Shown here piece by piece: positions 1,414 to 19,458 of a stretch of DNA of 64,000 nt. Each line of letters begins with the position of its first letter. The first letter of the stretch is position 1. A program made the position numbers and the translations under genes. Origin of the DNA: Candidatus Latescibacterota bacterium (GTDB taxonomy: Bacteria > Latescibacterota > UBA2968 > GCA-2709665); assembly GCA_965222075.1 (NCBI GenBank), contig OZ244937.1, positions 3,456,001 through 3,520,000 on the forward strand. The letters run 5' to 3'. The notes under the pieces were generated by a model, which had not been told where the DNA came from, did not search any database, and was given only the letters and a program-made list of their open reading frames with translations.

Positions 1414-1485
1414 CCAACTCTCGAAGTGACTCCCAAGATTGTCGGGACGGATTCCCTCAAGGGTACTCTGGTATCTAATTGACAT
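1414..1485 (-). pseudogene. N-terminus of a GNAT-like cassette gene interrupted by IS1380
   Basis: MSIRYQSTLEGIRPDNLGSHFESW resembles the N-terminus of small GNAT acetyltransferases; starts about 45 bp after the attC1 crossover. Confidence 0.55.
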
Positions 1486-1525
1486 CGCGTCGTGTGCGTT
1501 CATGTGAATTTTTACTCGCCATGTC

Positions 1526-1606
1526 GTCTAACGTCCCCGCCGTGCCCGAACCGCGAAGCGGTTGCGCGAAGGGCGTAGCCCGAAGCCGGGCACGGACGTG
1601 TTAGAC
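1526..1606 (-). repeat. attC site 1
   Basis: GTCTAAC...GTGCCCG...CGGGCAC...GTTAGAC with branched internal hairpins. Confidence 0.9.
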
Positions 1607-1663
1607 GGCGTTGGCCAAATCGTCACCACGGAGGAGATTTTTGGGCACACGGTTGCAGAGCGT

Positions 1664-3025
1664 TCAAAATGCCTCTTTCCCAACGATCTCGTAAACCCTC
1701 GCCGGATGGCGGTGATCTTTGACCTTATTGAATAGCGCTTTGGCCTTTTCCAGCATCCCGGCCCGTCCATAGAAGTAGATGAGGTTGCCAGCCTCGTTTG
1801 GTCTCCCAGTGAGGTCCCATACCTTCTCCTGCACGACCACGGCCCTGCCCCAATCACCCCTGTGGAATGCCAAACAGGACCCCATTTGCCGAAGTGCAAC
1901 GTAGGCCCATACGGTCTTTTGGCCTAGTCCGTACATGGTCTCATACACCGGATAGGCCTCATCCCACCGGTTCTGTCGAGCCAGTGACAAAGCGAGGTAG
2001 TTCAGGCACTGCTGGTCTTCAGGGGCCAAAGTGACGGCATGGCGGGCAACTTCCTCCATCTCTTCAAAGTCGCGTTTCCACAAAAACATCTGCGCCTTGG
2101 CAGTGAGAGCAACTATGTCATCAGGGTCCTTTGCAAGCCGCAGACTGCATAGCTCCAGGCATTTCTCGATTGCCGTGGCCTGCTTTTGCTGGTCGCCCGC
2201 CCATAAAACGGTAAGCTCGAACGCAACATCGATGGAGTCCGGCGCCGCTTTCGCGGCTCGTTGAAGGGTTGCCGCCTCTTCCTCGGAGGGGCCCTTGATC
2301 GGGTCATATGTCCGTCCGAGCTCCATCAATGCCTCAGGATGGTCCGGGGACACCTCCAGTGCTTCCCTGAAGCGTGCGCGTGCCTCATCCATCCTCATGT
2401 ACAATCGATCCCTCTTGCCCTGTTCCAAGAGTCGGGCAATGGTCCGTGCTGCGAATCCTTCGGGCAGATCATGCTTGCTCCTGTCATCTCTTGCCATGCG
2501 GGTGACCTCCTCCTTAAGCTGCCTGCGCGCCCTGTATAGCCGCTGTTTCACACCTGCAGGGGTCGTTCGTACCAGAAGAGCCACATCCTGAATCGAATAC
2601 CCTTCCAGATAATGCAGTGTAAACGCCTGGACGCTTTTCGCAGGAAGCCTTGAAAACAGTTCCTGGAACGCTGCATTCCGGATAACAGGCTGCTCTGGAT
2701 GTTCTCTGAGATCCGTCACCTCGACAACTGACTTCGCCACGGCTTGGTGGCGGCGATTGTCCCTCAACCTGTTGAGGCAGATGTTGCGAAGTATCTGCCC
2801 CACCCAGGATGAGAATCGAGAGTGCTCCTTCAGAGCCTCAAGCTGTTTGAAGGCCTTCAAGAATGCGTCCTGAAGAGCATCCTGTGCCTCTTCCTTAGCG
2901 TGCACATAACTTAGCGCCTGCAGGTAGAGGCGATCCTGATGGCGTAACACCAGGGCTTCGAATGCAGAAAGGCTGCCAGAGAGTGCGGCGGCGACTAGCT
3001 GGGCATCTGTGGATAGGCTTTCCAT
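1664..3025 (-). CDS. ECF sigma-70 factor with C-terminal TPR domain (cassette, copy 1)
   Basis: Region 2 (AFEALVLRHQ..AQDALQDAFLKAF..FSSWVGQILRN), region 4 (HYLEGYSIQDVA..VKQRLYRARRQL), then TPR-like helices; start placed at MESLSTD. Confidence 0.88.
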   Translation of the reverse strand: MESLSTDAQLVAAALSGSLSAFEALVLRHQDRLYLQALSYVHAKEEAQDALQDAFLKAFKQLEALKEHSRFSSWVGQILRNICLNRLRDNRRHQAVAKSVVEVTDLREHPEQPVIRNAAFQELFSRLPAKSVQAFTLHYLEGYSIQDVALLVRTTPAGVKQRLYRARRQLKEEVTRMARDDRSKHDLPEGFAARTIARLLEQGKRDRLYMRMDEARARFREALEVSPDHPEALMELGRTYDPIKGPSEEEAATLQRAAKAAPDSIDVAFELTVLWAGDQQKQATAIEKCLELCSLRLAKDPDDIVALTAKAQMFLWKRDFEEMEEVARHAVTLAPEDQQCLNYLALSLARQNRWDEAYPVYETMYGLGQKTVWAYVALRQMGSCLAFHRGDWGRAVVVQEKVWDLTGRPNEAGNLIYFYGRAGMLEKAKALFNKVKDHRHPARVYEIVGKEAF

Positions 3026-3117
3026 CGCTCTACCATTACGACACCTCAGGAGAGAGGAAGGTAACGCCGAGGAAGGATTCTTGCAGTAATCTCCGCCCGT
3101 TCGTGAGGGCAAATGCC

Positions 3118-3196
3118 GTATAACGTTCTCGGCACCCCCGAAGCCGCGAAGCGGTTTTGTGCGGAGCGAAGCGAAGCCGGGGGTGCCGTGTTAACC
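3118..3196 (-). repeat. attC site 2
   Basis: GTATAAC..GGCACCCCCG...CGGGGGTGCC..GTTAACC. Confidence 0.9.
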
Positions 3197-3260: not shown

Positions 3261-3566
3261 TCATTCATTTCCTGCCAGTGCTTCTGACCAACGCCTGGCC
3301 ATTGTCCTCAATTCTTCCTCATGGGCTGGCCAATCGTGAAGCGTGGCAGGATCAAAATCAGCACCATTCGGCCAGACGAGTGTATGCACCTCAGGATCAA
3401 TACGCACCTCATTAAAAAGCAATATATCCATCAGAGGTCCGAACAACTCGCCCTCAAGAACTGGACGAAAATCGATAACTCGAGTCGTTTCATCGTTGAA
3501 TCTGACTTTGATCTGATAGGTCCCAACAATCTCAAATGAAACGACTCGATAGATTGGATGACTCAT
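3261..3566 (-). CDS. DUF2442-family protein (copy 1)
   Basis: YQIKVRFNDETTRVIDF..GELFGPL..TLVWPNGADFDPATL motif. Confidence 0.85.
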   Translation of the reverse strand: MSHPIYRVVSFEIVGTYQIKVRFNDETTRVIDFRPVLEGELFGPLMDILLFNEVRIDPEVHTLVWPNGADFDPATLHDWPAHEEELRTMARRWSEALAGNE

Positions 3567-3577
3567 TCTATCCTCCC

Positions 3578-3847
3578 TTAATGAAGCGGATCGATCGGCA
3601 AGGGAGGATGCCCAGATTGGAGCCGACCCCAATCTTCAAGGAGCTCCTCCTGATGCAACTCCGCCCAGGCTTCGACGAATCGTTGCTGACGGCGTGGCAA
3701 AGTCCCTGCGATCAATTCAATGGTATCCACAGCGTAAACGGCCACTTCATCTTGATAATAGGCGTGAAAATGAGGCCGATGGTGCTGTGTTCTCGGTTCG
3801 GCAAACATGCGAATGATGATTCCGAAAAACCGAGAAATTTCAGGCAT
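3578..3847 (-). CDS. DUF4160-family protein (copy 1)
   Basis: MPEISRFFGIIIRMF..HHRPHFHAYY..WAELHQEELLEDW..IDPL motif; paired with DUF2442. Confidence 0.88.
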   Translation of the reverse strand: MPEISRFFGIIIRMFAEPRTQHHRPHFHAYYQDEVAVYAVDTIELIAGTLPRRQQRFVEAWAELHQEELLEDWGRLQSGHPPLPIDPLH

Positions 3848-3997
3848 TTGTTTTCCTTGCGATATGGATTTTATCGATGAAACCCTGCGGGAAATAAACC
3901 GGATTATGCATGGGTAAGCAAAATCCAAATTGGGATGAATGGGAGTCTGTTTTTGCCCCTCAGAGCTTGACCAATTAGCCCTTAAAACCTCCATGTC

Positions 3998-4081
3998 GGT
4001 TAACGTTCATCTGCCCCTGAACCGGCACAGCCGGTTGGGCGAAGGCCCGAATGGGCCGAAGCCAGGGGCAGGGTGTTATGC
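3998..4081 (-). repeat. attC site 3
   Basis: GGTTAAC..CTGCCCCTG...CAGGGGCAG..GTTATGC. Confidence 0.9.
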
Positions 4082-4201: not shown

Positions 4202-4930
4202 CTATTTGGCTTTCTCGATGACAGCTATATATCTTGGCCCCTCAGAATCAATAAAAGTAGAGGCCCTCCAACCTGTGCCAGCCAAAATATCGTGCAACTC
4301 CGCTTTGGACACAAACAGGTAATCAATCCACGGCGTTCTATGGATCTTATAGCGAATGCGCATCTTCACCTGACCCCCCATCCGACCTTGCTGACGATTG
4401 GCTCTGTGATAGGCATGGTGAAGAGGGTTCGAAGTCTGATAGGGATCCAAGGTCTCTGCGATAATGCGTCCTTTGCCAGTAGTCATGTGATAGAACTTAC
4501 GCAACAGCCACCTTGCCCGTCTGTAATTGCTCATCAGACCAAAATTGTTGCCCATCATGAGGAGGGTATCGAAGTGACCCAGGCGGGCATTCAATTGAGT
4601 GATCGACAATCTACGCACCTGCTTCACACCCCTCAATCGGCAGACCTTCACCGCCAGAGAAGATACATCGATCCCTATCACATCGTGTCCTTGATCCTGC
4701 AAATAGAGGGACATCCTCCCCGCGCCGCAGCCAATGTCTAAGGTACGCCCTATGACGTATCTCATGGCCTCCTGTTTCTGAGAGGGCCACTCTTCATAAG
4801 AAGAAAAATAGGCACTGGCCAAACTAGCGACATCAACGTACCCGTCGCTGCGCTCCACAATTTCGTATCTGTCATCCCCGCCTAAGAAATCGTAGAGTAG
4901 TTGACCGAATGCATCTGCATGTTGTTTCAT
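4202..4930 (-). CDS. Class I SAM-dependent methyltransferase (cassette)
   Basis: LDIGCGAGR motif I, VIGIDVS, FDTLLMMGNNFG. Confidence 0.88.
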   Translation of the reverse strand: MKQHADAFGQLLYDFLGGDDRYEIVERSDGYVDVASLASAYFSSYEEWPSQKQEAMRYVIGRTLDIGCGAGRMSLYLQDQGHDVIGIDVSSLAVKVCRLRGVKQVRRLSITQLNARLGHFDTLLMMGNNFGLMSNYRRARWLLRKFYHMTTGKGRIIAETLDPYQTSNPLHHAYHRANRQQGRMGGQVKMRIRYKIHRTPWIDYLFVSKAELHDILAGTGWRASTFIDSEGPRYIAVIEKAK

Positions 4931-5038: not shown

Positions 5039-5137
5039 GCATAACGTTCTCGCGGGCTGCGAACCTGCCGTAGCGAAGCGGAGGCAGGTTGGGTCGGAGG
5101 CGCGAATGCGCCGAAGCCGCAGCCCGTCGTGTTATGC
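5039..5137 (-). repeat. attC site 4
   Basis: GCATAAC..GGGCTGCG...CGCAGCCC..GTTATGC. Confidence 0.88.
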
Positions 5138-5298: not shown

Positions 5299-6291
5299 CT
5301 ATCCCAGTATAACAGCTATTCGGTTGTTCATATATTCGGTGATTTCCTTCAACTCCTGTTTGTTGTACGCCTCTTCAATGAGCCCCCAGCAGGTCAGGTA
5401 CCCAAGCGGATAGCGTAAACGATAGTACTCCAGGTGCAGCTCGTGGTCCTTATGAAGAGGGGCATCGTAGGATTTCCAAAAAGCCTCAAGACAGGAAGCC
5501 ATCAGATCCTCCCGATCGAATCCTAGATCATAGACCTCGTGGGAGAAGTGGTTGTACAATCTAGAAATATCCTGAATCCCGTACCCCGGCCCAACGCCCT
5601 CGAAGTCCAGCAGTCCCGTTACGGTATCTCGCGAAATCATGATGTTGGTTGCAGAGAAATCCCCGTGGGTTAGACAAGGCTGGACGTCTTCGCTAAAGAC
5701 CTCAATCCCTTTCCGGACCCAGCCCTCCAAGCGAGAACCCCATTTGGCAAAAGGGGTTTGAAAACTGGCTTTCACAATCTCTAATCCACGCTGTAGCTCA
5801 TATTCACGAGCTGTATGGCTGGTGTCGATTCCCTCCCGGGGTTTGACCCTGACCTCACCGTCTTTATATGCCAATCCTCCACCAAAGTGAGAGAAAGCAC
5901 TGATTTGGTGGAACGAAGAAAGTATTGTTCCAATCTGGGAATAGACAGCAACGGCTTCCTGGCGGGATAAACTCTCGCCCGCGTCTCCGAGGTTCTGCCC
6001 GTTGATGTACTCTTTGGTTACAAACTCCCCGGGCATGAGGCCAGCACGTAACCCTGTTTCGAGCACTTTGGGAACAGGAAGCTCAGTCTTGTCCTCCAGT
6101 ACGTTGATGACGAGGAGCTCGTGCTCAAGAGCATTAAGTTGACCGGGCGGGACATATTGGACCACAAATGGAGCAGTGTCCCTTGGGTGCACGAGATAAG
6201 TGGGTTTGCAGATGCCGCCTTCCAATTGCTCGAAATGCGCAATCGGTCTCCGGATAACCTCCTCAATGACATCAAGAGTCACTTCAGCCAT
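5299..6291 (-). CDS. APH/choline-kinase-like phosphotransferase (two-gene cassette)
   Basis: LPVPKVL, HGDFSATNIM, GLLDFE motifs. Confidence 0.85.
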   Translation of the reverse strand: MAEVTLDVIEEVIRRPIAHFEQLEGGICKPTYLVHPRDTAPFVVQYVPPGQLNALEHELLVINVLEDKTELPVPKVLETGLRAGLMPGEFVTKEYINGQNLGDAGESLSRQEAVAVYSQIGTILSSFHQISAFSHFGGGLAYKDGEVRVKPREGIDTSHTAREYELQRGLEIVKASFQTPFAKWGSRLEGWVRKGIEVFSEDVQPCLTHGDFSATNIMISRDTVTGLLDFEGVGPGYGIQDISRLYNHFSHEVYDLGFDREDLMASCLEAFWKSYDAPLHKDHELHLEYYRLRYPLGYLTCWGLIEEAYNKQELKEITEYMNNRIAVILG

Positions 6292-6321: not shown

Positions 6322-7113
6322 TCAGGATATCAGCTGCTTGGCCAAATCAATACCAGGATCATATCCCTCCAAAGCTGGTTCACCCTGAGAAACAGCAATG
6401 GTCGTGACCATTCGGTAGACCAGCGCGCGGATCAGTAGCTGGGGGAAGTGTTCAACGTGAGAGACATGCTCAATTAGACCTGACGGATCTGCATCCCGCC
6501 AACACACGGCATCCGCTACAACGATAGCAGACGCAAACCCAACTGGACGCCAATAGGGCGAAAAATCGATCACGGCCGGGGAAAGTCCTTCAGCGAAGAG
6601 GATATTCTCCGTAAGGTCACCGTGAATAAGCTGCGATGTGGTTACCATCGGGGAGCGCATGCGGAGTAACTCGGTGAGCCGCTTGTTTGCGAATGGCGGC
6701 TCTATCTCCTCCCAAGCTACAAAATCACCAAGTGACCAAGGATCATCTGAGCGATCGTCCAGGAATGGCGCCCGAGGCAGGTGCTCAATTGCCTTATGGA
6801 ATCGGTCTCCGGTGAGAATTACTTCTGCCCATCTTTCCTGCTCAGGGTGTTCGCCCTCAACCGCTTCTTGGGCACACCACCCGTCAACAACCCATCGTCC
6901 ATCGAAGGCCCGTACGGGAAGTGGCAGCCTAAAGCCTTCTGCTTTAACTGTTGATAGATGGTCGGCGAACCAACGCCAAACGTCAGGACTTTCGTCCGGT
7001 TTGAGGATAAGGTCTCCTGCCAGCCAGCAGCAACCCTCCCCGCCAGCTAGTTGTACCAAATCTGCGGTAACATTGAACGCTTGAATTACCCTATCAGGGG
7101 GCCGGGGGCTCAT
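6322..7113 (-). CDS. APH-like phosphotransferase (two-gene cassette)
   Basis: QLIHGDLTENILF, AVIDFSPYWRP motifs. Confidence 0.85.
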   Translation of the reverse strand: MSPRPPDRVIQAFNVTADLVQLAGGEGCCWLAGDLILKPDESPDVWRWFADHLSTVKAEGFRLPLPVRAFDGRWVVDGWCAQEAVEGEHPEQERWAEVILTGDRFHKAIEHLPRAPFLDDRSDDPWSLGDFVAWEEIEPPFANKRLTELLRMRSPMVTTSQLIHGDLTENILFAEGLSPAVIDFSPYWRPVGFASAIVVADAVCWRDADPSGLIEHVSHVEHFPQLLIRALVYRMVTTIAVSQGEPALEGYDPGIDLAKQLIS

Positions 7114-7184: not shown

Positions 7185-7301
7185 GCATAACGTTCTCGGC
7201 ACTCCCGACCTGCCGGCCTGTCCTCCGGAGCTGCGTAGCAGCGAAGGAGGGAGGCAGGTTTCTGCGGAGCGTCAGCGAAGCTCGGGAGTGCCGTGTTAAG
7301 C
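7185..7301 (-). repeat. attC site 5 (117 bp, nested palindromes in loop)
   Basis: GCATAAC..GGCACTCCCGA...TCGGGAGTGCC..GTTAAGC. Confidence 0.88.
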
Positions 7302-8344
7302 GCATGTGCTGGTTTTGGTGTCAGGAAATCGACTGGCGGTGCCGATCAATGGATCTTAACGAGCGAAATTCGTCCCAATGTTTAATCGAGGAAATATCAC
7401 CTGATGTCTTTATGGATCCGGGCCGATCATCTGATCTGTCGAAGTAGACCGCTTGCATACCGAGCTGCTTTGGTGCAGTATAATCGTTCTGTAGGCTGTC
7501 ACCGATGAATAAGACTCTATTGGCTTGATCAGCTTGCACATTCGCAAGCCCCTGTTGATAAATCTGTTTACCTGGCTTTTTCCATCCGAAGTCCGAGCGG
7601 GCGCGGTCCCATAGTGTGACAAAAAAGATAGCATAACATCCTCAATAATTTCTTATGGTTAGAGGAAAGTTTGGGAAATTTACTTCTAACCAACAAGAAT
7701 CAGAAAGGACGTTATGCTGGATCATATCATAGATCAAGTGACAGAAAAAGTCAACCAAAAGTTGCCTAAGATGGTGAGCGACTTGCAAGAGAGTCTTTCG
7801 TTTGCCGACTTGGAGCATGGCTTGATCGGTTTGCTCCAGGAGGTGGTGGGCATCGTCGTGAGTCCGGTGTTGAATCAGGTTTTTCAGGATGAGGCCTTGC
7901 TGTTTGGGCTGCGTCAGGCAGCCGGTAGTATGGGCTACAGATATAAGGAACATCGGCCTTTGACCGTACGGATTTTGGAAGGTGTAGAAGTTGAAGTCTC
8001 TTCGCCCTATTTCGTTAAGCGGGGTCGCAAACGGGGCAGGAAGAAGCGGGGTCCCAATGGTCGAGGGTGTCATCTGTTATTGGATGTGCTTGGGTTTATC
8101 GGTCAGTGCAGTCCGGAGTTTGTAGATGAAGCTGTGAAGTTGGCCTTGTTATGCCCCTCCTTTGAGGTGGCCACTCAGGTGTTGGATGCCCGTCAGATAA
8201 AGCTGGACAAAAAAACCCTTCGAAGATTGTGCAAAGCTTTAGGCGAATTGGGTCTGGAGCAGAGAGCCACGATTGCTCTAAAAGATGAGCTCTCCTTTTC
8301 AGGTCGCACGGTGTATATCGGCATCGATGGGGGTCGGATGCGGA

Positions 8345-8371
8345 CCTGCCCGCGCGCAGCGCGCAGGCGGG
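8345..8371. repeat. Micro-palindrome insertion 1 (27 bp, in frame)
   Basis: CCTGCCCGCGCGCAGCGCGCAGGCGGG between A|T. Confidence 0.8.
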
Positions 8372-8534
8372 TGCGTGAGCCCAAGCGGGGTCGAAAGCCG
8401 AAGGGAAAGAAATATCCCCGATATGATACACCTTGGAGAGAACCCAAGTTGTTTACCATCTACATGTTGGACGAAAAAGGTCGCGTCGAAAAATCGTGGA
8501 CGCCTATCCACGATGCGACTCGGGGCAATGCCGA

Positions 8535-8561
8535 CCTGCCTGTGCGGTGCACGCAGACAGG
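8535..8561. repeat. Micro-palindrome insertion 2 (27 bp, in frame)
   Basis: CCTGCCTGTGCGGTGCACGCAGACAGG between A|T. Confidence 0.88.
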
Positions 8562-8853
8562 TTTGATGTTTGAGATGCTGGAAGCTACCCTTTTGGAACT
8601 GCCCCTGCAACAGGCCGATCGGGTCGTGTTTATCGCCGATGGGGCAGAATGGATCTGGCCGAGGGTAGAGCGTCTGATCTGGAGGTTGGGGGTGCCTCCA
8701 AGCAAGGCGATCCAGATCCTCGACTATTACCATAATAGTGAAACCCTCTTTGAACTGGTGCAACTCCAACCGAAGCTTAAAGAAAAGGCACAACGTGCCC
8801 TGTATGAGACGTGGAAGACCTGGATGTGGAATGGGGAGCTTTTAAAACTCCGA

Positions 8854-8889
8854 CCTGCCTGTGCGTGCTGTCTCACGCACGCAGACAGG
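8854..8889. repeat. Micro-palindrome insertion 3 (36 bp, in frame)
   Basis: CCTGCCTGTGCGTGCTGTCTCACGCACGCAGACAGG between A|A. Confidence 0.88.
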
Positions 8890-8969
8890 AAAGAAGTGCT
8901 CCAGCAGCTTCGCGGGAAAAAACGAAAACAGGCCATCACATCCCTGAACCATTTCGACCGTCATGCGCA

Positions 8970-8994
8970 CCTGCCTGTGCCGATGGCAGACAGG
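8970..8994. repeat. Micro-palindrome insertion 4 (25 bp, frameshifting)
   Basis: CCTGCCTGTGCCGATGGCAGACAGG between A|T; removal restores HAHRMRYPTFK. Confidence 0.9.
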
Positions 8995-9035
8995 TCGAAT
9001 GCGCTATCCTACCTTCAAAGAACAGGGCCTTCCCA

Positions 9036-9062
9036 CCTGTCTGCGTGCCACGCACAGGCAGG
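9036..9062. repeat. Micro-palindrome insertion 5 (27 bp, reverse orientation)
   Basis: CCTGTCTGCGTGCCACGCACAGGCAGG between A|T; removal restores GLPIGSG. Confidence 0.9.
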
Positions 9063-9300
9063 TCGGAAGTGGACACGTCGAAAGCGCCATCCGTCGTGTC
9101 ATCAATCTTCGGATCAAAGCACCAGGCACGTTCTGGAAAAAAGACATGGGCGAATACTTCCTGTTTCTGCGCTCACAGTTGATCTGTGGAAGATGGCCTA
9201 TCTTCTTCCAGAATGTCACAGGACGATACCGAACGGGTGAGTTTGCCCAACATCTCTTTCCCTCTTCTCCGAAAATGGGTTTGCTCAAGACAGGGACAGA

Positions 9301-9325: not shown

Positions 9326-9935
9326 TGATCACTAACGCAATTAACCGCTTATTCAACAACTTAACACGACTTTCTATATGTCATACTTTGGGACTGCACC
9401 CAGTCCGAGCTGCCTAACATAAATTCAAAATATTTCCCAAGACCGGACTTTTGGATGCTCCGAGAAGGACCATCTGGAAGAAAGAAGTTCGACACGACAG
9501 CCAATCGGCACTTATCTATCCAGAAGTCGAGCATTTGCACAACGCCGGGTGTAAGTCTAAGGGTCTTGGGAAATTCCTGTTCGAAGTGCTCAATCATTTC
9601 ACAAACCAAACCTTCGATTTCACCTCTTCTCTCAGGGGCCTTCTCCTCAAGAACTGCACGGAAACGTTCCGGCAACGTAACTTCGCGCCAGGTCCCGTCG
9701 GACCACTGGTTCTCCCGCCACCTATCATAATCTTGCCTGAAATCAGTTGAAGAAGAATAGAACCCCGCCTCTACTGGCATGTGAGTGAGAAACCCGATCC
9801 CGGATTCATCTCCTGTGTCATCGAAATTGTCAATCAGTGTATTGAAGCAGTCGAAGAATATCCAATCAAACGAGCTCATTTTCCGGTATTTTGCACCCTT
9901 TGTCTTTTCGTTGAGCTAGCCAAAACCAACATTGC

Positions 9936-10014
9936 ACTTAACGTTCTCGGCACCCCCGAAGCCGCGAAGCGGTTTTGTGCGGAGCGAAGCGAAGCCGGGG
10001 GTGCCGTGTTAACC
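9936..10014 (-). repeat. attC site 6 (same body as attC2)
   Basis: ACTTAAC...GTTAACC; part of the duplicated cassette. Confidence 0.9.
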
Positions 10015-10815: not shown

Positions 10816-10905
10816 GGTTAACGTTCTACCGATTGCCGAACCTGCGAAGCAGGTTGCCGAAGGCCAAGCGCCGAATGGCGCGCAGCGGCAAACGAGTTGT
10901 TAGAT
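10816..10905 (-). repeat. attC site 7
   Basis: GGTTAAC..TTGCCG...CGGCAA..GTTAGAT. Confidence 0.85.
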
Positions 10906-10945: not shown

Positions 10946-11005
10946 GATTAAGGCTACAGCTCAGCCGCGGTGCTTGTCACCGTCGGCTGCAGTGCCTTGT
11001 TGGCC
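10946..11005 (-). repeat. Degenerate classical 60-bp attC inside the GNAT cassette
   Basis: Minus strand GGCCAACAAGGCACTGCAGCCGACGG...CCGCGGCTGAGCTGTAGCCTTAATC; R' mutated GTT to CTT; matching GTTGGCC upstream of the gene (11491-11497). Confidence 0.7.
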
Positions 11006-11476
11006 GTTTATTCCTTTGTCCAGGTCCAGTCTGTACCGGCATGTCGGCCCGAGTTCTCCTGGCTCCCGTTCGGTTTCGATGGTGTCGACGTATGTCGCCC
11101 CGATCAACTCACAGGTCCTTCTGGATGCGTCGTTATCGGGACGGCAAGTGATCAACAGCGAGTTCAGTCCATGGCTAAGAGCAAGGGGGAACAGGAGGCG
11201 GCAACTGCGGGCAGCACATCTGTTCCCACGGTATTCCTCCTGAACATCGTAGCTCAGGTTGCCTCCATACTGTTCGAGCCTTTCCGTGCACCGGGTCCTG
11301 AGGCAGATGCTGCCGATCGTCGCCCCGCTGCTAATAAGCCGCATCTCGAAACGGTACTCGGGCACCCGTCCCTTCTCAGAATCGGACGGAAGCGTCTCGG
11401 TGAGGACAAGCTCAAGATCTCCGTCGACCAAGTGTCCTGGATCGTGGAATTCACATTCGGGATTCTTCCGGGTCAT
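10961..11476 (-). CDS. GNAT-family acetyltransferase (cassette)
   Basis: GNLSYDVQEEYRGNRCA, LLITCRPDNDASRRTCELIGA. Confidence 0.85.
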   Translation of the reverse strand: MTRKNPECEFHDPGHLVDGDLELVLTETLPSDSEKGRVPEYRFEMRLISSGATIGSICLRTRCTERLEQYGGNLSYDVQEEYRGNRCAARSCRLLFPLALSHGLNSLLITCRPDNDASRRTCELIGATYVDTIETEREPGELGPTCRYRLDLDKGINGQQGTAADGDKHRG

Positions 11477-11579: not shown

Positions 11580-11667
11580 ATCTAACGTTCTCGGCACCCA
11601 CGAACCTGCCGGAGGTAGGTTGGGCGGAAGCCCGAACGGGCTGGAGCCGTGGGTGCTCGTGTTACGC
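11580..11667 (-). repeat. attC site 8
   Basis: ATCTAAC..GCACCCACG...CGTGGGTGC..GTTACGC. Confidence 0.88.
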
Positions 11668-11717: not shown

Positions 11718-12359
11718 TCACGAGTACATCGACAGGTCATCCCAGTCCGAGGACAGCGTCGGTCGAGGTAGCTTCGGATCGGGGTGCCAGCCTTCCCACC
11801 CGGCGGAGAAGGGACCTACGTTCCGCTCAATCTCCTCGACCGCACGCTGCCCCTCTGCACGAATCGCAATGGCATCCTCGAGACTCACTCTCCCGTCCTG
11901 CACGCATATGTCGAGTTCGTCCTTGTCTTTCCATCTCCACTCTCGGTTTGGTTCAACGAGGATGTCAAGCTGATGGTCCCTCAAATCGAAGCCCAGCGGT
12001 GTGCGTGTTAGTCTGCTCTGCATGTTCACATACCACCCAGAGAACTCCCGATCTCTTGACCATATGACGCAAGTTGCCCGATGCTGATCGGGTCTGATGA
12101 CGATCAAGAGCTCGCCCCACTGCCAAGTCGAATCCTGAAGCGTCCAGTTGTCCTCGGTCCACCGCCGTGGCGTTCCTGGCGTATGGTTTAGCAGCACCGG
12201 ATTCTTTGTAGGTGTATCCATTGGGAGCCAGAGGACGATCTGGGTCTCAGAATCTTCGACTACGGTGACGGGCTTCACATCGATAATTTGGCCATGCTCA
12301 TCAGTTTCTCGATAGAGTATGCAATCACCACATCGGAACCTGTCAGCTCCTTCTCCCAT
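11718..12359 (-). CDS. DUF402-domain protein (cassette)
   Basis: FSGWYVNMQ..FDLRDHQLDILV..WRWKDKDEL motif. Confidence 0.85.
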   Translation of the reverse strand: MGEGADRFRCGDCILYRETDEHGQIIDVKPVTVVEDSETQIVLWLPMDTPTKNPVLLNHTPGTPRRWTEDNWTLQDSTWQWGELLIVIRPDQHRATCVIWSRDREFSGWYVNMQSRLTRTPLGFDLRDHQLDILVEPNREWRWKDKDELDICVQDGRVSLEDAIAIRAEGQRAVEEIERNVGPFSAGWEGWHPDPKLPRPTLSSDWDDLSMYS

Positions 12360-12416: not shown

Positions 12417-12497
12417 GCGTAACGTCCCCGCCGTGCCCGAACCGCGAAGCGGTTGCGCGAAGGGCGTAGCCCGAAGCCGGGCACGGACGTGTTAGAC
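12417..12497 (-). repeat. attC site 9 (same body as attC1)
   Basis: GCGTAAC...GTTAGAC. Confidence 0.9.
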
Positions 12498-12554: not shown

Positions 12555-13916
12555 TCAAAATGCCTCTTTCCCAACGATCTCGTAAACCCTCGCCGGATGG
12601 CGGTGATCTTTGACCTTATTGAATAGCGCTTTGGCCTTTTCCAGCATCCCGGCCCGTCCATAGAAGTAGATGAGGTTGCCAGCCTCGTTTGGTCTCCCAG
12701 TGAGGTCCCATACCTTCTCCTGCACGACCACGGCCCTGCCCCAATCACCCCTGTGGAATGCCAAACAGGACCCCATTTGCCGAAGTGCAACGTAGGCCCA
12801 TACGGTCTTTTGGCCTAGTCCGTACATGGTCTCATACACCGGATAGGCCTCATCCCACCGGTTCTGTCGAGCCAGTGACAAAGCGAGGTAGTTCAGGCAC
12901 TGCTGGTCTTCAGGGGCCAAAGTGACGGCATGGCGGGCAACTTCCTCCATCTCTTCAAAGTCGCGTTTCCACAAAAACATCTGCGCCTTGGCAGTGAGAG
13001 CAACTATGTCATCAGGGTCCTTTGCAAGCCGCAGACTGCATAGCTCCAGGCATTTCTCGATTGCCGTGGCCTGCTTTTGCTGGTCGCCCGCCCATAAAAC
13101 GGTAAGCTCGAACGCAACATCGATGGAGTCCGGCGCCGCTTTCGCGGCTCGTTGAAGGGTTGCCGCCTCTTCCTCGGAGGGGCCCTTGATCGGGTCATAT
13201 GTCCGTCCGAGCTCCATCAATGCCTCAGGATGGTCCGGGGACACCTCCAGTGCTTCCCTGAAGCGTGCGCGTGCCTCATCCATCCTCATGTACAATCGAT
13301 CCCTCTTGCCCTGTTCCAAGAGTCGGGCAATGGTCCGTGCTGCGAATCCTTCGGGCAGATCATGCTTGCTCCTGTCATCTCTTGCCATGCGGGTGACCTC
13401 CTCCTTAAGCTGCCTGCGCGCCCTGTATAGCCGCTGTTTCACACCTGCAGGGGTCGTTCGTACCAGAAGAGCCACATCCTGAATCGAATACCCTTCCAGA
13501 TAATGCAGTGTAAACGCCTGGACGCTTTTCGCAGGAAGCCTTGAAAACAGTTCCTGGAACGCTGCATTCCGGATAACAGGCTGCTCTGGATGTTCTCTGA
13601 GATCCGTCACCTCGACAACTGACTTCGCCACGGCTTGGTGGCGGCGATTGTCCCTCAACCTGTTGAGGCAGATGTTGCGAAGTATCTGCCCCACCCAGGA
13701 TGAGAATCGAGAGTGCTCCTTCAGAGCCTCAAGCTGTTTGAAGGCCTTCAAGAATGCGTCCTGAAGAGCATCCTGTGCCTCTTCCTTAGCGTGCACATAA
13801 CTTAGCGCCTGCAGGTAGAGGCGATCCTGATGGCGTAACACCAGGGCTTCGAATGCAGAAAGGCTGCCAGAGAGTGCGGCGGCGACTAGCTGGGCATCTG
13901 TGGATAGGCTTTCCAT
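12555..13916 (-). CDS. ECF sigma-70 factor with TPR domain (cassette, copy 2)
   Basis: Identical translation to 1664-3025. Confidence 0.88.
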   Translation of the reverse strand: MESLSTDAQLVAAALSGSLSAFEALVLRHQDRLYLQALSYVHAKEEAQDALQDAFLKAFKQLEALKEHSRFSSWVGQILRNICLNRLRDNRRHQAVAKSVVEVTDLREHPEQPVIRNAAFQELFSRLPAKSVQAFTLHYLEGYSIQDVALLVRTTPAGVKQRLYRARRQLKEEVTRMARDDRSKHDLPEGFAARTIARLLEQGKRDRLYMRMDEARARFREALEVSPDHPEALMELGRTYDPIKGPSEEEAATLQRAAKAAPDSIDVAFELTVLWAGDQQKQATAIEKCLELCSLRLAKDPDDIVALTAKAQMFLWKRDFEEMEEVARHAVTLAPEDQQCLNYLALSLARQNRWDEAYPVYETMYGLGQKTVWAYVALRQMGSCLAFHRGDWGRAVVVQEKVWDLTGRPNEAGNLIYFYGRAGMLEKAKALFNKVKDHRHPARVYEIVGKEAF

Positions 13917-14008
13917 CGCTCTACCATTACGACACCTCAGGAGAGAGGAAGGTAACGCCGAGGAAGGATTCTTGCAGTAATCTCCGCCCGTTCGTGAGGG
14001 CAAATGCC

Positions 14009-14103
14009 GTCTAACGTCTCACGGTTTGCGAACCCCGAGCTTGTCGAGGGGTTGCCGGAGGCCAAGGCGCGACAGCGCCGCAGCGAAAACCGCTGTGTTA
14101 TGT
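14009..14103 (-). repeat. attC site 10
   Basis: GTCTAAC..CGGTTTGCG...CGAAAACCG..GTTATGT. Confidence 0.85.
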
Positions 14104-14126: not shown

Positions 14127-14951
14127 CTACCATGCCTCCGAGCGAGCAGGTTGCAGAGCAAATTGCGTGATTGTGTCGTGAGCCCGCCCCGTGCAGTCAT
14201 GATGCACATACACCGTGTCGTTGATGACGATTCGGCGATTGTCTGGATACTTGGCGACCAAGTCCCGGTCGCGGAAAAACCTCCCATCGTATCGCCGGAA
14301 GAAGACAGTCCTTCCACCTGCTTCAACGAAGGCTTCCACCAACTCGCCACCGTTTGGTGCGGAGAGTCCTGGAATGGCATCGAATACACGTAGACAGTGG
14401 AACCTGTGATCGCCGATAGTCACGTCGTAGGTTCCAGCACCAATCCCTTCCCCGTCTGTTGTTTTGTAGGATCCATCGCTCTGCCGCTCGTATTGGCCTC
14501 CGTCGATCATTCGACGGTTCATAACACCGCCCCAGTTGGCCTCGAAGTGCCTGTCGCCCTGCACCTCGACCAAGCGTTTGCCGTCTACGCTCCTCGTGAC
14601 ACCAACCCAACGCGCACCGACGTCATCCAACAGTGCGTACATATAGCCAGGATCGAATTCCAACGGGATGTCTTCACGCTTCACATGTTGTTCCACTCGA
14701 AGTTCGATACAATCGATGTCTCGGAGTGTAGCCGATCCTACGGACACGATTTTAACGACCTCTGTCAGCTCAAGTGTATCCGCTTCATACACGGCCCACT
14801 TGCAGTGTTCACCCAACCTGGGAACGGCAAACCACCACTGCAGTTCCGGGCAATTGACCTCTTGCAATCGCGCACTGCTTTCCTGGATCGTGACCTGTGG
14901 TCGGGTCAATGGAAAACCATCAACCATCTCGCTGCCGATTTCAGTGTTCAT
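14127..14951 (-). CDS. Hypothetical protein (cassette); start uncertain
   Basis: ORF fills the space between attC10 and attC11. Confidence 0.75.
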   Translation of the reverse strand: MNTEIGSEMVDGFPLTRPQVTIQESSARLQEVNCPELQWWFAVPRLGEHCKWAVYEADTLELTEVVKIVSVGSATLRDIDCIELRVEQHVKREDIPLEFDPGYMYALLDDVGARWVGVTRSVDGKRLVEVQGDRHFEANWGGVMNRRMIDGGQYERQSDGSYKTTDGEGIGAGTYDVTIGDHRFHCLRVFDAIPGLSAPNGGELVEAFVEAGGRTVFFRRYDGRFFRDRDLVAKYPDNRRIVINDTVYVHHDCTGRAHDTITQFALQPARSEAW

Positions 14952-14994
14952 AAGGACTGTAGGAGAGCGGCGCGGTCTTTGTCTTTTGCATGGC

Positions 14995-15092
14995 ACATAA
15001 CGATTTGACGGTTTGCGAACCCCGAGCTTGCCGAGGGGTTGCCCGAAGGGCCAAGGCGCGTAGCGGCGCAGCGCAACACCGTGCTGTTAGAG
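14995..15092 (-). repeat. attC site 11
   Basis: ACATAAC..CGGTTTGCG...CGCAACACCG..GTTAGAG. Confidence 0.85.
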
Positions 15093-15116: not shown

Positions 15117-16151
15117 TCAGAGCGCTACCGTCGTCTCGTTCAATGTCCGAAGAAGCCTTCTCACTTCGGATTCATATGATGGTCCACCGTGCCCGATGGC
15201 CTTTCGTGCAGTCATTGTCCAAATGAGTTCCTGTAGGCTGTAAAGGAGATGAACCGACTCCCACGACGGCCCATGAAGTCCCCTTGTGTGCAGGTACTCA
15301 CTCCAAAGAGCCTTTCGAAACGCTGAAAAATCGTCTCGGTAGCGCCAAAGCTCTCCTCCCCACTCGCCGAAGTTAAACTCGAGGACGGGATTTCCCACAC
15401 CAGCGTTTCCCCAATCCAGGATCCCGGTTACTTCTAGGTCTCGATCTGACCGGACCAAGATCTGGTCTTCGTGGACATCACCGTGAAGAAGCACATTGTC
15501 CATCTTGGCAAGCTCTGAAAGGGCCTGTTGCCACTTGCCGATACTGGTTTCAGAAGTCAGCTCTTTGAATTCGTCCTCCGCGATATTGGTAGCGTGGTCC
15601 CGGACTAATGATGCAATTAAACTCAGCACTTCCCCCAAGGAACTCAATTGGAGCGCCTTGTACATCCATCGATACGAGTCGGCATGATCACCGGCGAGAT
15701 CCTGTGACAATGGTTTCAGGAAGTCTGTTTCCGGCCCCAATTGAAGGTTGTGCCAAAATCCCGCAAGCCGTCCAACTGTGCGGAGAACTTCTTCATAACC
15801 TTCCGAACGTAAGGATCGTTCGATCGTGCCAAGCAGCACCCCATGTAGGCGCGTGACAACTCCAAACCGGTAAAGGCTCAACTCGTAATTTTCGACCGAT
15901 CTGACGAGCTTGGAGACCGGCAACCCGTCCAGTTCATTGAACAGTTCATAAAGCTCAAGTTCGGTACTCAGTGAACACTGGTACTTGGGATGCCTTGGAA
16001 ATAGAAAGACGAGATCCGGGGACTTGATAATGTGCTTGGACCAGCCGGTAAAATCGGGTTCAAGCTCTCCGAGCGTCAGTCCGAACTCTTCACAGAAACG
16101 ATTGAGGTGAGGCCTGATCAAAATGGCTTCGATTGCCGCAGAGTTTTTCAT
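15117..16151 (-). CDS. APH-like phosphotransferase (cassette)
   Basis: LLHGDVHEDQILV, GILDWGNAGVGNP. Confidence 0.85.
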   Translation of the reverse strand: MKNSAAIEAILIRPHLNRFCEEFGLTLGELEPDFTGWSKHIIKSPDLVFLFPRHPKYQCSLSTELELYELFNELDGLPVSKLVRSVENYELSLYRFGVVTRLHGVLLGTIERSLRSEGYEEVLRTVGRLAGFWHNLQLGPETDFLKPLSQDLAGDHADSYRWMYKALQLSSLGEVLSLIASLVRDHATNIAEDEFKELTSETSIGKWQQALSELAKMDNVLLHGDVHEDQILVRSDRDLEVTGILDWGNAGVGNPVLEFNFGEWGGELWRYRDDFSAFRKALWSEYLHTRGLHGPSWESVHLLYSLQELIWTMTARKAIGHGGPSYESEVRRLLRTLNETTVAL

Positions 16152-16177
16152 GTCTTTGTGATCCGAACCTGCATGTC

Positions 16178-16307
16178 CTCTAACGTCCTCCGGGTTGCCG
16201 AAGTGGCCGTGCATAGGGAAAGGAACCAGTGGTTTTACAATCAGTCAAGCATAAACTCACGGCCATTTAGGCGTAGCGAAACGGAGCCGGTCAACCCGGT
16301 GTTAACC
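16178..16307 (-). repeat. attC site 12 (130 bp, AT-rich loop)
   Basis: CTCTAAC..CCGGGTTG..TGGCCGTG...CACGGCCA..CAACCCGG..GTTAACC. Confidence 0.82.
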
Positions 16308-16404: not shown

Positions 16405-18753
16405 CTATTCATACCTCAAAGCATCTACTGGATTTGCAGTTGCGGCTTTGAACGCTTGGGAAGTAACTGTCAACAACACAATGACCAATGTTAAGAATCC
16501 TCCTAACACAAATACCTGTGGTCCAATATTTATACGATATGCAAAATCTTGAAGCCATCGGCTCATAGTGTAGTAGGCCATCGGCCAGCCGATTAGATTA
16601 GCCAGGACCACTAACTTCATGAAATCTTTCGAGAACAGCAGGACGATGTTGAAGACTGAAGCACCCAAGGCCTTCCTAATACCCACCTCTTTTGCACGTC
16701 GAGCCACCGCAAGGGCTGTCAACCCAAACGCGCCGAGAGAGGCGATAAAGATTGCAAAAAGGGAAGAATATCCTATAATTCGTCCCCATCGCTGGTCCGA
16801 CCTGTATAGTCTATCTACATGGTCATCTAAGAAAGAAAAGTCGAAAGGCAGATTCGGGATGACCTGATGCCACTTGCCTTTCAGAAGCTCAATGGTTGCC
16901 GGAATTTTGTCTGCACGAATCTTGACAAAGAGGTAAGATGGAGTCGATGTAAGAGAAAACATCAGGGGTTCGATTGGATGATGTAGGGATTGATAATGGA
17001 AATCCTTCACCACACCGATGATGGGTCGATCCTTAAATACGCCCTTCATATGTTCAGAGGCATCCAAACCAATTGTATTCATCCATGTCTCATTAACCAT
17101 TACCCCCTCGACACCGAATGCCTCTGAAAAACCCCTCCCTGAGACCAGTTCAATCCCCATAAATTCGAAGTAATTATAACCGACTTCGAACACCACAAAA
17201 CTTACTTTTCTATCCTTGTACATACCTGTATATCTGGCCAGCCCCCGGCCAAAGAGATCGGAGGCACCGAAAATCCCCAGGATATCCTCGTGGTGGGCCA
17301 ATCCATCCTTGAAAGCGTCTATAATCCGCGCCCTCTCCAGATTCCATAAGGGCATAACGAGGACATGCTCACTGTGAGACCCTAAGCTTTTCACCTTCAA
17401 ATAGTCGATCTGTTTAAACATAAGGAGGGTACTGATAATAAGAAATATGGACAAGGCATATTGAATAACCATAAGCGTCTGGCCCAAGAGGTCCCTCCCG
17501 CCGATCCGCAATGATCTTTTCAGTACGTCTACGGGTTGGAACCTCGATAAAAAAGCAGCCGGATACCCCCCGGCGGCCAGACTCACCAGGAACATCAGTC
17601 CGGCCAGGATTCCTAGAGCCCATCCATCCAGATGGAACTCAATCGGCGGTCTTTTCTGGACCAGATCATTGAACTTTGGCAGAAACAATTCGGCTATCCC
17701 AAATCCCAGCAACAGTGCTAGAAAACTCAGTATGAAGAATTCACCCCAAAACTGCACCACGATCTGAGTTCTTCTAGCGCCTATTACTTTGCGCACACCC
17801 ACTTCTTTGGCACGAGCCACAGACAGGCTAATGGATAAGTTCGCGAAATTGATGCAGGCGATCAATAGGACCAGGAGTGCAATCCCAGTCAGAACGTAGG
17901 AATAGACAGGGTTACTCACCGGCTCTGGACCATGGAGAACATGGTTTGCATAGTGAACGTCCGTAAGTCTCTGAAGATGCAACGTCCATCTGTCAGGGTT
18001 CCCCATGAATTTTTTCACTATTGATGGAAATTTCGCTTCAATCTCAGAGGACAGGGTCTTCTCCGCCAAGCGTACATAAACTGTATGGCCGCCGATATGC
18101 GACTTCCAACTGTGGATGTCCATCTCCAAAAGGTCTATCAGCCGTTCATATGGTAGCAGACAATCGAATCGAATGCTGGAGTTCTCCGGAATGCGATGGG
18201 CCACACCTGTCACAAGAAAATCGTAAAACTGGTTGCCCGAGCCAAGAATCGAAATCTGTTTACCCACCGGATTTGCGTTGCCAAAAAATCTCTTTGCCAC
18301 CTCCTCGCTCAGTACGACTGAACTCTTATCCCGAAGGGCCGTTCTTTCATCGCCCATCCTGAGCGGAAAGCTAAAAATATTGAAAAGGGACGCATCAGCA
18401 AAGAGAAGATCCTGCTCAAGCATCTTCTCCCCGACCATAATCCATTTCCTGCTTGTCTTCAGCCTGACCGTATGGGCTATTTCCGGGATATTCTCTGCTA
18501 ATATGGGTGCTAAAGGTGGATTCTGGATAACAAAAAGCCGTCGATCACCATCCGGCTCCTTCCAACCTATATAAAGCCGGTAAATAGAATTAACGTGCTT
18601 GTGGAAGGTATCGTAGGACCATTCGTGCCGAACATAGAGGAACGTCAGGATGCAGAAGGCAAACCCGATGGCCAGACCGGTGATGTTGATCAGGGAATAG
18701 GCTTTGTGTCTGAGTAAATTCCGAACCGCAACTGTCAAATAGTTCCTAAGCAC
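16405..18753 (-). CDS. ABC transporter permease, MacB/FtsX type with duplicated domains
   Basis: MLRNYLTVAVRNL..LLIACINFANL..RAKEVGVRKVIGA..ANPVDALRYE. Confidence 0.92.
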   Translation of the reverse strand: MLRNYLTVAVRNLLRHKAYSLINITGLAIGFAFCILTFLYVRHEWSYDTFHKHVNSIYRLYIGWKEPDGDRRLFVIQNPPLAPILAENIPEIAHTVRLKTSRKWIMVGEKMLEQDLLFADASLFNIFSFPLRMGDERTALRDKSSVVLSEEVAKRFFGNANPVGKQISILGSGNQFYDFLVTGVAHRIPENSSIRFDCLLPYERLIDLLEMDIHSWKSHIGGHTVYVRLAEKTLSSEIEAKFPSIVKKFMGNPDRWTLHLQRLTDVHYANHVLHGPEPVSNPVYSYVLTGIALLVLLIACINFANLSISLSVARAKEVGVRKVIGARRTQIVVQFWGEFFILSFLALLLGFGIAELFLPKFNDLVQKRPPIEFHLDGWALGILAGLMFLVSLAAGGYPAAFLSRFQPVDVLKRSLRIGGRDLLGQTLMVIQYALSIFLIISTLLMFKQIDYLKVKSLGSHSEHVLVMPLWNLERARIIDAFKDGLAHHEDILGIFGASDLFGRGLARYTGMYKDRKVSFVVFEVGYNYFEFMGIELVSGRGFSEAFGVEGVMVNETWMNTIGLDASEHMKGVFKDRPIIGVVKDFHYQSLHHPIEPLMFSLTSTPSYLFVKIRADKIPATIELLKGKWHQVIPNLPFDFSFLDDHVDRLYRSDQRWGRIIGYSSLFAIFIASLGAFGLTALAVARRAKEVGIRKALGASVFNIVLLFSKDFMKLVVLANLIGWPMAYYTMSRWLQDFAYRINIGPQVFVLGGFLTLVIVLLTVTSQAFKAATANPVDALRYE

Positions 18754-18871
18754 GGTGCCCCTCTCCGTTTATAAGTTTACGAATCAAGAATATCTTGAAA
18801 CATAGGAGCAATATGTGTGCTATAGTCACACTTATGCAGGTTTTCCAGGCGTTTAGCGAAAAGTACAAGAA

Positions 18872-18915
18872 ATACAACTCAAGAGAAGTGTTCGCTGGAG
18901 ATACATAGGTGTTCG
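18872..18915 (-). other. Candidate attI site
   Basis: Minus strand has CGAACAC twice, 21 bp apart, followed by GA-GTTGTAT; lies between the recombinase remnant and the array. Confidence 0.35.
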
Positions 18916-18925
18916 ATAATGGACG

Positions 18926-19018
18926 GTTATACAGGTAGCGCAGTTGGGACAGCAGCGCGTCAAGGTTCTTGTGAGCGCGCCGGGAGATGTAAGCCGTCTT
19001 TGTTATCGTCCTGGTCAT
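18926..19018 (-). pseudogene. Possible N-terminal remnant of TnpB (IS605 OrfB HTH)
   Basis: MTRTITKTAYISRRAHKNLDALLSQLRYLYN resembles the TnpB start (..L..L...R.LYN); local GC jump. Confidence 0.4.
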
Positions 19019-19149
19019 AAGATAAATATAACAAAATCAGGATGTTAAAGCAATAAATACTGCCGAAAATACGATCTCTCTTTTCTTGTTCCTTCAACCT
19101 GTTAGCCAAGTATGTAATTCCCTTTTTTAACTTCATCTCTGAGACCGGA

Positions 19150-19458
19150 TCAATGGAACAGAGGTTCCATTTTTGTATCAACCATCCGGTTTGTTGAGTT
19201 TATTCGGGGAATCCCCTTCCCTGGCGACTGACCCGTCCTGGTCTTCAGAGGCCAGCGGTTTGTTGTCGCCGGCTGTTTTCCTTCATCGATCAGGTAGAGC
19301 AGGTGCCCTCGGATCTCTTCGCCTGTGACATCCTTTAAATTCTGACGTACGAGCCGAATAAATTGTTGCAAATGACGCAGATAGGTTCTGCGGGAACCCG
19401 GCGCCAGCTCCGCCTGCTCTTTGACACTCCCACGGATAAATCCATGGGATTCTCTCAC
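19150..19458 (-). pseudogene. Truncated tyrosine recombinase/integron-integrase, N-terminal SAM-like domain only
   Basis: SRRTYLRHLQQFIR..LKDVTGEEIRGHLLYLIDEGKQPATTN fits Phage_int_SAM_4; no catalytic domain follows. Confidence 0.72.

Follow-up and report, generated by a model that had tools for sequence, protein, structure and literature searches.

According to passages of the IntegronFinder 2.0 preprint, clusters of attC sites lacking integron-integrases (CALIN) are held to be degraded integrons. An additional helix of the integrase, I2, docks the extrahelical bases of attC. It is held to be found in IntI only and to be required for the capture of cassettes, its deletion abolishing IntI1 function; in the same pages, gaining this helix is the current account of how a Xer-like enzyme turned into an integron integrase (eLife 2020, PMC7790495). 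"Reverse" chromosomal integrons, in which intI is transcribed towards attI, sharing its direction with the cassettes, are set out for Treponema in parts of an earlier article (PMC3607928). Passages of a classification of tyrosine recombinases define an "integron-like" subgroup that joins IntI with insertion-less recombinases of IS91 and IS3 elements, the insertion itself being specific to IntI (Smyshlyaev, Barabas, Bateman, 10.1101/542381). For the Firmicutes, one complete integron and a few CALIN are reported in the IntegronFinder 2.0 preprint (10.1101/2022.02.28.482270). The subject here is an attC array in a stretch of 64,000 nucleotides (the window) from a Candidatus Latescibacterota bacterium, corresponding to genome positions 3456001-3520000 of contig C1 in the genome under study (G000), together with a recombinase fragment upstream of that array.

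The IntI of Treponema carries the I2 insertion, and detection tools define an integron by the I2 domain. The window array is a genuine integron gene-cassette array without an integrase. It is probably a decayed sedentary array of 25.6 kb whose platform has been lost, which was built by an insertion-less, IntI-like recombinase and near which a relic of a divergent member of the same recombinase family persists. The evidence comes from the array itself, from broken recombinase genes elsewhere in G000, and from intact relatives of those genes that stand at the heads of attC arrays in other genomes.

Structure and ends of the cassette array

Twelve attC sites of 79-130 nt, all on the minus strand, occupy 1526-16307 of the window (coordinates are given from R' to R''), and they were used to build a covariance model, R1. 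The RNAalifold consensus supplied the inner stem only, so that the R-box pairs were added to the model by hand, and a strict regex-and-fold filter recovered just 2-3 of the 12. Scanning the 64-kb window with R1 returned the 12 sites, which are its own training set, and no further site. In the 20 kb to the left of the window, the same scan found 10 independent attC, again all on the minus strand. The whole array counts 22 attC over 25.6 kb (genome 3446744-3472310), with 9.3 kb lying past the left window edge. The first-pass annotation, which had described 12 sites and an array running past that edge, is borne out in this respect, as is its remark that several R boxes break the GTTRRRY consensus: this consensus fits 4 of the 12 R' boxes and is broken in 8.

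The sites are palindromes of one orientation that separate single genes or small gene groups and carry R''...AAC and GTT...R' boxes. In each of the 12 window sites the R'' box ends with TAAC and the R' box starts with GTTA, and the R' core CGTTA is invariant (12/12). The fold of the bottom strand comprises an R stem, a bulge, a long L stem and a branched or variable tip, with nine inner pairs in the RNAalifold consensus and at least one compensatory change in each. When 120 attC were folded (the 22 of the array and 98 more, taken from further G000 arrays, from relatives and from other phyla), the R boxes were paired in 80 minimum-free-energy folds, of which 55 showed a bulge of 4-5 nt on one side only, beside the R stem. 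The G+C content is ~52% in the array versus ~61% in the flank, and a search of window positions 1-21000 against Rfam gave no match.

The junctions between cassettes are equally regular. In 20 of the 21 neighbouring pairs, 8-10 of 10 bases agree between the R'' flank of site n+1 and the reverse-complemented R' flank of site n; the remaining pair was read by eye at 9/10. Such a signature remains when circular cassettes recombine with an array at G|TT, and the cassettes of the window array were joined through site-specific recombination, with the G|TTA in each attC as the point of exchange. The signature is also intact (9/10) across an insertion sequence (IS) at the left window edge, which occupies positions 1-1400 and interrupts the cassette after attC 12; the next attC lies 826-973 bases to the left of the window start.

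Two cassettes were recently copied as exact cassette units. A sigma-70/TPR cassette is present at 1526-3123 and 12417-14014 (1595 of 1598 positions identical), and a DUF4160/DUF2442 cassette at 3118-4003 and 9936-10821 (882 of 886). For both duplicates, identity stops inside the R boxes, at G|TTA junctions, and the neighbouring cassettes differ. Such near-identical, cassette-precise duplicates imply that a recombinase acted on the window array recently.

Neither end of the array carries an integrase gene. At the distal (left) end no recombinase and no ordinary intI was found, the latter being an arrangement that the first-pass annotation had considered. At the head, the stop codon of a MacB/FtsX-type permease gene (16405-18753) lies ~95 nt upstream of attC 1. 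This gene has an ortholog with 83% nucleotide identity in G002, a genome of another genus in the same family, where it stands in a tandem cluster of MacB paralogues without an attC match; the gene is therefore chromosomal and not a cassette. Its candidacy as a large first cassette was rejected on this ground and on the lack of a 5' junction. The MacB cluster of G000 itself is 280 kb from the window copy. At the edge of that cluster, a weak attC match (28.5 bits) adjoins the truncated N-terminal part of a MacB paralogue (genome 3778875-3779499), a hint that a rearrangement brought the window copy of MacB from this cluster to the array.

For the R'' flank of attC 1, TTCGGTTAAC (16301-16310), the window contains no upstream partner R'; the expected R' flank GTTAACCGAA is absent there. 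The attI block of the lineage, described below, was found at two genome positions only (5300931 and 3535501), neither of them at the window array. The missing partner R', the missing attI and the chromosomal gene at the head together indicate that the head of the window array was lost by rearrangement. The array thus no longer has a platform of its own (integrase gene and attI), and its head adjoins an ordinary chromosomal gene.

The last attC of a second array, at 968 kb (genome 968039), has an R' flank that is the exact complement of this TTCGGTTAAC; the chance of such a 10-mer match among ~63 sites is estimated at a few percent. A former contiguity of the two arrays (A and D) was considered, since GTTAACCGAA sits at the tail attC of the 968-kb array, and was rejected because this tail resembles a natural array end: the motif that follows it also ends the window array and follows attI in relatives. 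The motif, ~65 nt long (GCAAAACTGGCGCAA...CCCAACCACCCCACCC...ATCGCGCACAAA), recurs after G|TTA junctions. It is present at the distal ends of the two arrays (genome ~3446744 and ~968039), after attC 8 (window 7110-7181), and directly after attI in G047 and G002 (L042/L047). It may represent a common cassette, or else native sequence from downstream of attI that was displaced to the end of the array.

Recombinase relics in the genome

G000 has no intact integron-type recombinase. No match to TIGR02249 exceeds the cut-off of 265 bits anywhere in the genome, and PF00589 identifies two Xer-like genes of full length, besides incomplete stretches at 416k, 697k, 3408k and 5301k. The intact copy sought since the first-pass annotation is consequently missing throughout G000. 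Its description of the array as CALIN-like stands, with no functional integrase nearby; its suggestion that the array is served in trans finds no candidate in G000.

Broken copies are, however, linked to other arrays of the same genome, in which R1 identified 63 attC in ~8 clusters (the window and eleven other stretches). This number is a lower bound, as the whole-genome scan scored 150 of 3726 first-look candidates. Four further relics are 77-94% identical at the protein level to intact array-head recombinases of G018, G002 and G047. As the four share overlapping parts of the gene, the genome once had at least four copies, all of them now broken. Three of the four stand upstream of arrays in the same orientation, as does a 3'-end remnant at 3535.6k. 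In the I2 region, the relic at 697k has ~16 residues for ~60 model positions.

The fragment in the window is of a different quality. The first-pass annotation had reported an N-terminal recombinase fragment upstream of the array and on its strand, and such a fragment exists: a 102-aa open reading frame (ORF) on the minus strand (19150-19458), in the orientation of the cassettes. It is not adjacent to the array, being placed 2.84 kb upstream of attC 1 and behind the chromosomal MacB-type gene, and it can be aligned to recombinases at residues ~2-58 only (~57 aa), the rest being unrelated. No further piece of a recombinase gene was detected downstream of it in 16300-19700. Against N-terminal hidden Markov models (HMMs), the relic scores 24.2 bits with insertion-less recombinases outside the IS91 branch (76 sequences) and 23.1 bits with IS91-linked recombinases (14 sequences). 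None of 500 shuffles of the relic rose above 4.6 bits against these two models. The scores are 6.0 bits with canonical IntI and 8.2 bits with Xer, a weak contrast because the latter models derive from just 4 and 2 sequences. The HMM scores and the shuffles identify the fragment as a genuine "integron-like" relic that cannot be placed in either branch. The ORF would then hold a ~57-aa N-terminal remnant of a divergent family member.

Several results weigh against connecting this remnant with the builder of the array. Its score against the Pfam model of the N-terminal SAM-like domain of phage integrases (25.5 bits) is under the gathering score of 27. A word-indexed search of longer proteins returned no homologue, and phmmer against 1.84 billion representatives gave none at E<=0.001; there is no paralogue in G000 and no DNA match in G001-G003. 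The 24.2 and 23.1 bits do not distinguish the IS91-associated branch from the other. Between the relic and the array, whose head lacks both attI and the partner R', stands a gene with a chromosomal location in a sister genus. The fragment is too short, too divergent and too distant to be tied to the window array, to which it may or may not have belonged. The first-pass annotation had asked whether full-length homologues of the fragment stand upstream of arrays and whether they carry I2. At the level of the family, relatives do stand upstream of arrays, in the same orientation, and lack I2, as shown below; the fragment itself has no close homologue.

A different origin for the relic is suggested by its nearly equal scores with the two branches: it could derive from an IS91-family element, consisting of a recombinase and a Y2 HUH transposase, located between the MacB-type and Kelch genes. 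The relic would then be unrelated to the array, itself a CALIN with a lost head. The non-cassette gene between relic and array fits this origin, and so does the first likeness that was detected for the relic, to the recombinase of a 2535-bp IS91-like element in G004. We regard it as doubtful, since no remnant of a Y2 transposase lies near the relic (PF04986 is matched just once in the genome, at 3797653), 16300-19700 holds no further part of an element of this kind, and the best pairwise match of the relic (39.5% over 43 aa) is the array-head recombinase of G060, which is not of the IS91 type.

Insertion-less recombinases in relatives and other phyla

Canonical IntI is present in the family of the window genome (in G004) and in its class, six of 61 genomes having a match over the TIGR02249 cut-off. 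A second set of recombinases matches TIGR02249 at positions 1-178 and 235-315 only. In an alignment of such proteins with four IntI and two Xer, 31 + 10 columns are filled by the four IntI only, and the I2 insertion is absent from all 15 rows that are neither IntI nor Xer. The catalytic R, K, HxxR, H and Y are nearly invariant (21 full or near-full proteins); the window relic lacks the catalytic domain. Insertion-less proteins remain under the cut-off, with 212.6 bits for the IS91-type protein of G004 and two stretches of ~100-126 bits each for array-head proteins. The best solved structure for the array-head recombinase of G002 is that of IntI4 (PDB 2a3v, E 4e-41), with matches to the N-terminal and catalytic parts.

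These recombinases are associated with attC sites in a fixed arrangement. Among 20 loci of relatives scanned with R1, 13 have matches downstream on the recombinase strand, the nearest site being 0.9-4.8 kb away, and in none of these 13 does an attC lie upstream of the recombinase. Of the 60 R1 matches in relatives, 45 lie downstream on the recombinase strand. After the stop codon of the genes in G018, G002 and G047, and at the 5301k and 3535k loci of G000, a block of ~150 nt is conserved up to ...CCGTAGTTA, after which the sequences diverge. Judged by this pattern, the block is a putative attI with its predicted crossover at G|TTA.

A mechanism for the arrays of G000 can be proposed on this basis. 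Their builder would be an I2-less, IntI-like tyrosine recombinase, of which degraded copies appear to remain upstream of four other G000 arrays. The relatives would retain the complete organisation: an intact gene, a presumed attI that ends with GTTA ~150 nt past the stop codon, and co-oriented cassettes. Unless it receives an external integrase, the window array would now be static except for homologous recombination and the insertion of IS elements.

The association extends beyond the class. A profile search with one genome per species yielded 80 loci from many phyla, in which all 16 R1 matches are downstream on the recombinase strand. A broader model, R2, built from 98 sites, gave 43 matches in 16 loci, every one of them downstream on the recombinase strand. 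Sites resembling attC are found in a complete Desulfitobacterium chromosome, in a Saccharibacillus, in two spirochaetes, in a Thermodesulfobacterium, and in a metagenome-assembled genome (MAG) of the Gemmatimonadaceae; those of Desulfitobacterium show the exchanged-flank signature. Many E-values of single matches in this survey are weak. A canonical IntI over the cut-off is missing in four of five array genomes that were checked, including the complete Desulfitobacterium chromosome. A Y2 (IS91-type) transposase comes right after the recombinase in 10 loci, with a weak opposite-strand match in an eleventh, and none of the 16 loci with R2 matches has an adjoining transposase (L107 has a weak opposite-strand Y2 match ~5 kb off). 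In a FastTree phylogeny, whose support values were not inspected, the Y2-linked proteins form one clade, and canonical IntI forms one clade nested among insertion-less proteins. The proteins linked to attC are spread over the remaining clades, most array-head members falling outside the IS91-linked clade.

It follows as a proposal, and one for which we consider the case evenly balanced, that a widespread and so far overlooked class of integrons has insertion-less recombinases as its working integrases. In this class the gene would point towards the cassettes, attI would lie ~150 nt past the stop codon, and the sites would have a CGTTA core and a one-sided 4-nt bulge. The class would also occur in phyla regarded as nearly free of integrons, such as the Bacillota; canonical IntI would be nested within it, the I2 helix being a later addition and not the innovation that first allowed cassettes to be captured, and many "CALINs" would be complete integrons invisible to present detection tools.

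Two genomes in the family of the window genome combine IS91-type elements with integron components. In G007 (loci L049, L054 and L143-L146), a ~2.5-kb unit of an insertion-less recombinase and a Y2 (IS91-type) transposase is present in six copies. Five have co-oriented attC matches 1-2 kb downstream, one of these five (L144) lies within an array, and L145 has no match. The right end of the unit, ...AATCGTTA, is shared by at least five copies and is followed by a different sequence in each, like an attI junction; the unit may be a transposable integron platform. In G004 (L011/L032-L033), a canonical IntI gene (464 bits) is followed, 179 bp past its stop codon, by the 2535-bp IS91-like element; a second copy in G004 is 100% identical to it, and R1 found no array downstream.

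These two cases also bear on an alternative that we hold to be unlikely, slightly more so than an IS91 origin of the relic. Canonical, I2-bearing IntI would have built the arrays and would since have been lost or act from other replicons, and the I2-less recombinases would be passengers that home to array heads or attC sites, like IS1111-attC elements and group IIC introns. The copies of the G007 unit just upstream of or within arrays, the position of the G004 element close to an IntI gene, and the occurrence of canonical IntI genes in the same family and class are what such passengers would produce. Passengers would be less expected where no transposase accompanies the recombinase, and outside the IS91 clade none stands beside the head recombinases (11 of 13 co-oriented loci of relatives, and all 16 R2 loci). 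Nor do they explain why the conserved attI-like block ends exactly at G|TTA, why attC are never upstream of the recombinase in the 13 co-oriented loci, or why full junction signatures occur in those four of five checked genomes without a canonical IntI over the cut-off.

Other observations count against insertion-less integrases as builders more generally. Of the seven remaining loci in relatives, four have no R1 match, one shows the classical divergent arrangement, one has sites on both sides, and one is at a contig end; moreover, related genomes are not independent samples. The Gemmatimonadaceae MAG, one of the five genomes checked, carries a canonical IntI elsewhere, as does G004. The attC models were trained on the lineage of the window, which makes "no match" in 64 of the 80 distant loci uninformative. 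Construction of the window array by an insertion-less recombinase is still the reading that we prefer. Finally, that the repeats are other intergenic palindromes, such as repetitive extragenic palindromic (REP)-like elements or terminators, is suggested by their GC-rich, imperfect and intergenic nature and is highly improbable in view of the R''/R' boxes with AAC...GTT on one strand throughout, the exchanged flanks in 20 of 21 pairs, the cassette-precise duplicates, the covarying pairing positions and the cassette-typical gene content.

Features of the window and comparison with known systems

The positions of the sites, cassette genes and flanking features are collected in Table 1.

Table 1. 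Sites and genes of the window array and its surroundings (window coordinates).
Feature	Position	Strand	Basis or remark
Relic of N-terminal (SAM-like, core-binding) domain, integron-like tyrosine recombinase	19260..19458	-	Break point approximate, from alignment
MacB/FtsX-type permease gene, 782 aa, 2.35 kb	16405..18753	-	Pfam; between array and relic
attC 1	16178..16307	-	Most upstream of array; R'' GGTTAAC, R' GTTAGAG; 59 bits (covariance model)
Cassette ORF, APH-family phosphotransferase	15117..16174	-	Pfam PF01636, E 4e-17
attC 2	14995..15092	-	Junction match to attC 1 = 10/10
Cassette ORF without Pfam family	14127..14996	-	
attC 3	14009..14103	-	Covariance model and junction
Cassette ORF, sigma-70 r2/r4 and TPR, copy 2 of duplicate	12555..14003	-	Pfam of twin ORF
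attC 4	12417..12497	-	Near copy of attC 12; covariance model and junction
Cassette ORF, DUF402	11718..12359	-	Pfam
attC 5	11580..11667	-	Covariance model and junction
Cassette ORF, GNAT acetyltransferase	10961..11476	-	Pfam
attC 6	10816..10905	-	Covariance model and junction
Cassette, DUF4160/DUF2442 gene pair, copy 2	10079..10812	-	Pfam
attC 7	9936..10014	-	Copy of attC 11 apart from R' end
Cassette ORF, weak HAD-like match	9361..9879	-	Under Pfam cut-off
508-aa ORF on opposite strand, within cassette between attC 7 and attC 8	7714..9240	+	UPF0236, Pfam PF06782, 29.7 bits
attC 8	7185..7301	-	Covariance model
ORF between attC 8 and attC 9, weak RIO1-like match	6322..7113	-	Pfam
ORF between attC 8 and attC 9, APH family	5299..6291	-	Pfam
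attC 9	5039..5137	-	Fold and covariance model
Cassette ORF, SAM-dependent methyltransferase	4202..4930	-	Pfam
attC 10	3998..4081	-	Covariance model
Cassette, DUF4160/DUF2442 gene pair, copy 1	3261..3994	-	Pfam
attC 11	3118..3196	-	Fold and covariance model, 83.5 bits
Cassette ORF, sigma-70/TPR, copy 1	1664..3112	-	Pfam
attC 12	1526..1606	-	Last in window; ten more further left, outside window
IS with DDE transposase (DDE_Tnp_1_4)	1..1400, off left window edge	-	Pfam PF13701, E 6e-30

Over the whole array, the cassette products include APH-family kinases, methyltransferases, GNAT, HAD, HIT and DUF402 proteins, a BrnT toxin, toxin-antitoxin-like pairs and a sigma factor, a content that is ordinary for sedentary integrons. 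An ATG start directly after R' was considered as a general rule and dropped, as a long frame at this position is present just in the DUF4160 cassette. Two unlike transposase genes lie inside array cassettes, one of the UPF0236 type on the plus strand and one of the DDE_Tnp_1_4 type on the minus strand. The former, the 508-aa ORF, probably encodes an IS transposase, which we take to be of the ISLre2 type. Beside the relic, positions 19581-23102 contain genes for a Kelch-repeat protein, a BNR/sialidase-like protein and a DHDPS-family (N-acetylneuraminate-lyase-like) protein; this is an ordinary chromosomal sugar-acid cluster with 61% G+C.

If I2-less recombinases do run attC arrays, the origin story of integrons would need revision, integron surveys would undercount complete systems, Gram-positive bacteria included, and recognition of folded attC without I2 would become a directly testable question. 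The window alone has a more modest meaning. It is a well-preserved example of decay, in a genome where all integrase copies are broken and the arrays are scattered, with a lost head and recent cassette copying. The first-pass proposal of an under-described integron lineage fits the co-oriented, insertion-less type found in relatives; co-orientation itself is already known from Treponema, and the fragment that had prompted the proposal is not tied to the array. The view of the window array as a decayed representative of this type is therefore partly supported. A full-text search of a limited literature collection found no paper on attC arrays headed by insertion-less recombinases.

Compared with CALIN, the window array has the same long one-strand series of attC sites, the same lack of a functional integrase close by, insertions of IS elements, and cassettes with an accessory or toxin-antitoxin-like content. 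It differs in that G000 holds ~8 clusters together with several relics of non-canonical recombinases, and in an R' core of CGTTA in place of GTTRRRY. The array-head loci of the relatives resemble the reverse integrons of Treponema, with the recombinase upstream of the cassettes and co-oriented with them, and attI past its 3' end. In contrast to the Treponema IntI, which is treated as normal, the recombinases described here have no I2 insertion and fall under the TIGR02249 cut-off. They belong to the "integron-like" subgroup, some of them beside a Y2 transposase, whereas the passages of 10.1101/542381 on this subgroup draw no link from its insertion-less members to attC arrays. The closest solved relative, VchIntIA/IntI4 (2a3v), is the best match of the G002 recombinase over both of its conserved parts and departs from it in the I2 region, where 69 residues stand between the matched stretches, as opposed to 27 in the array-head protein.

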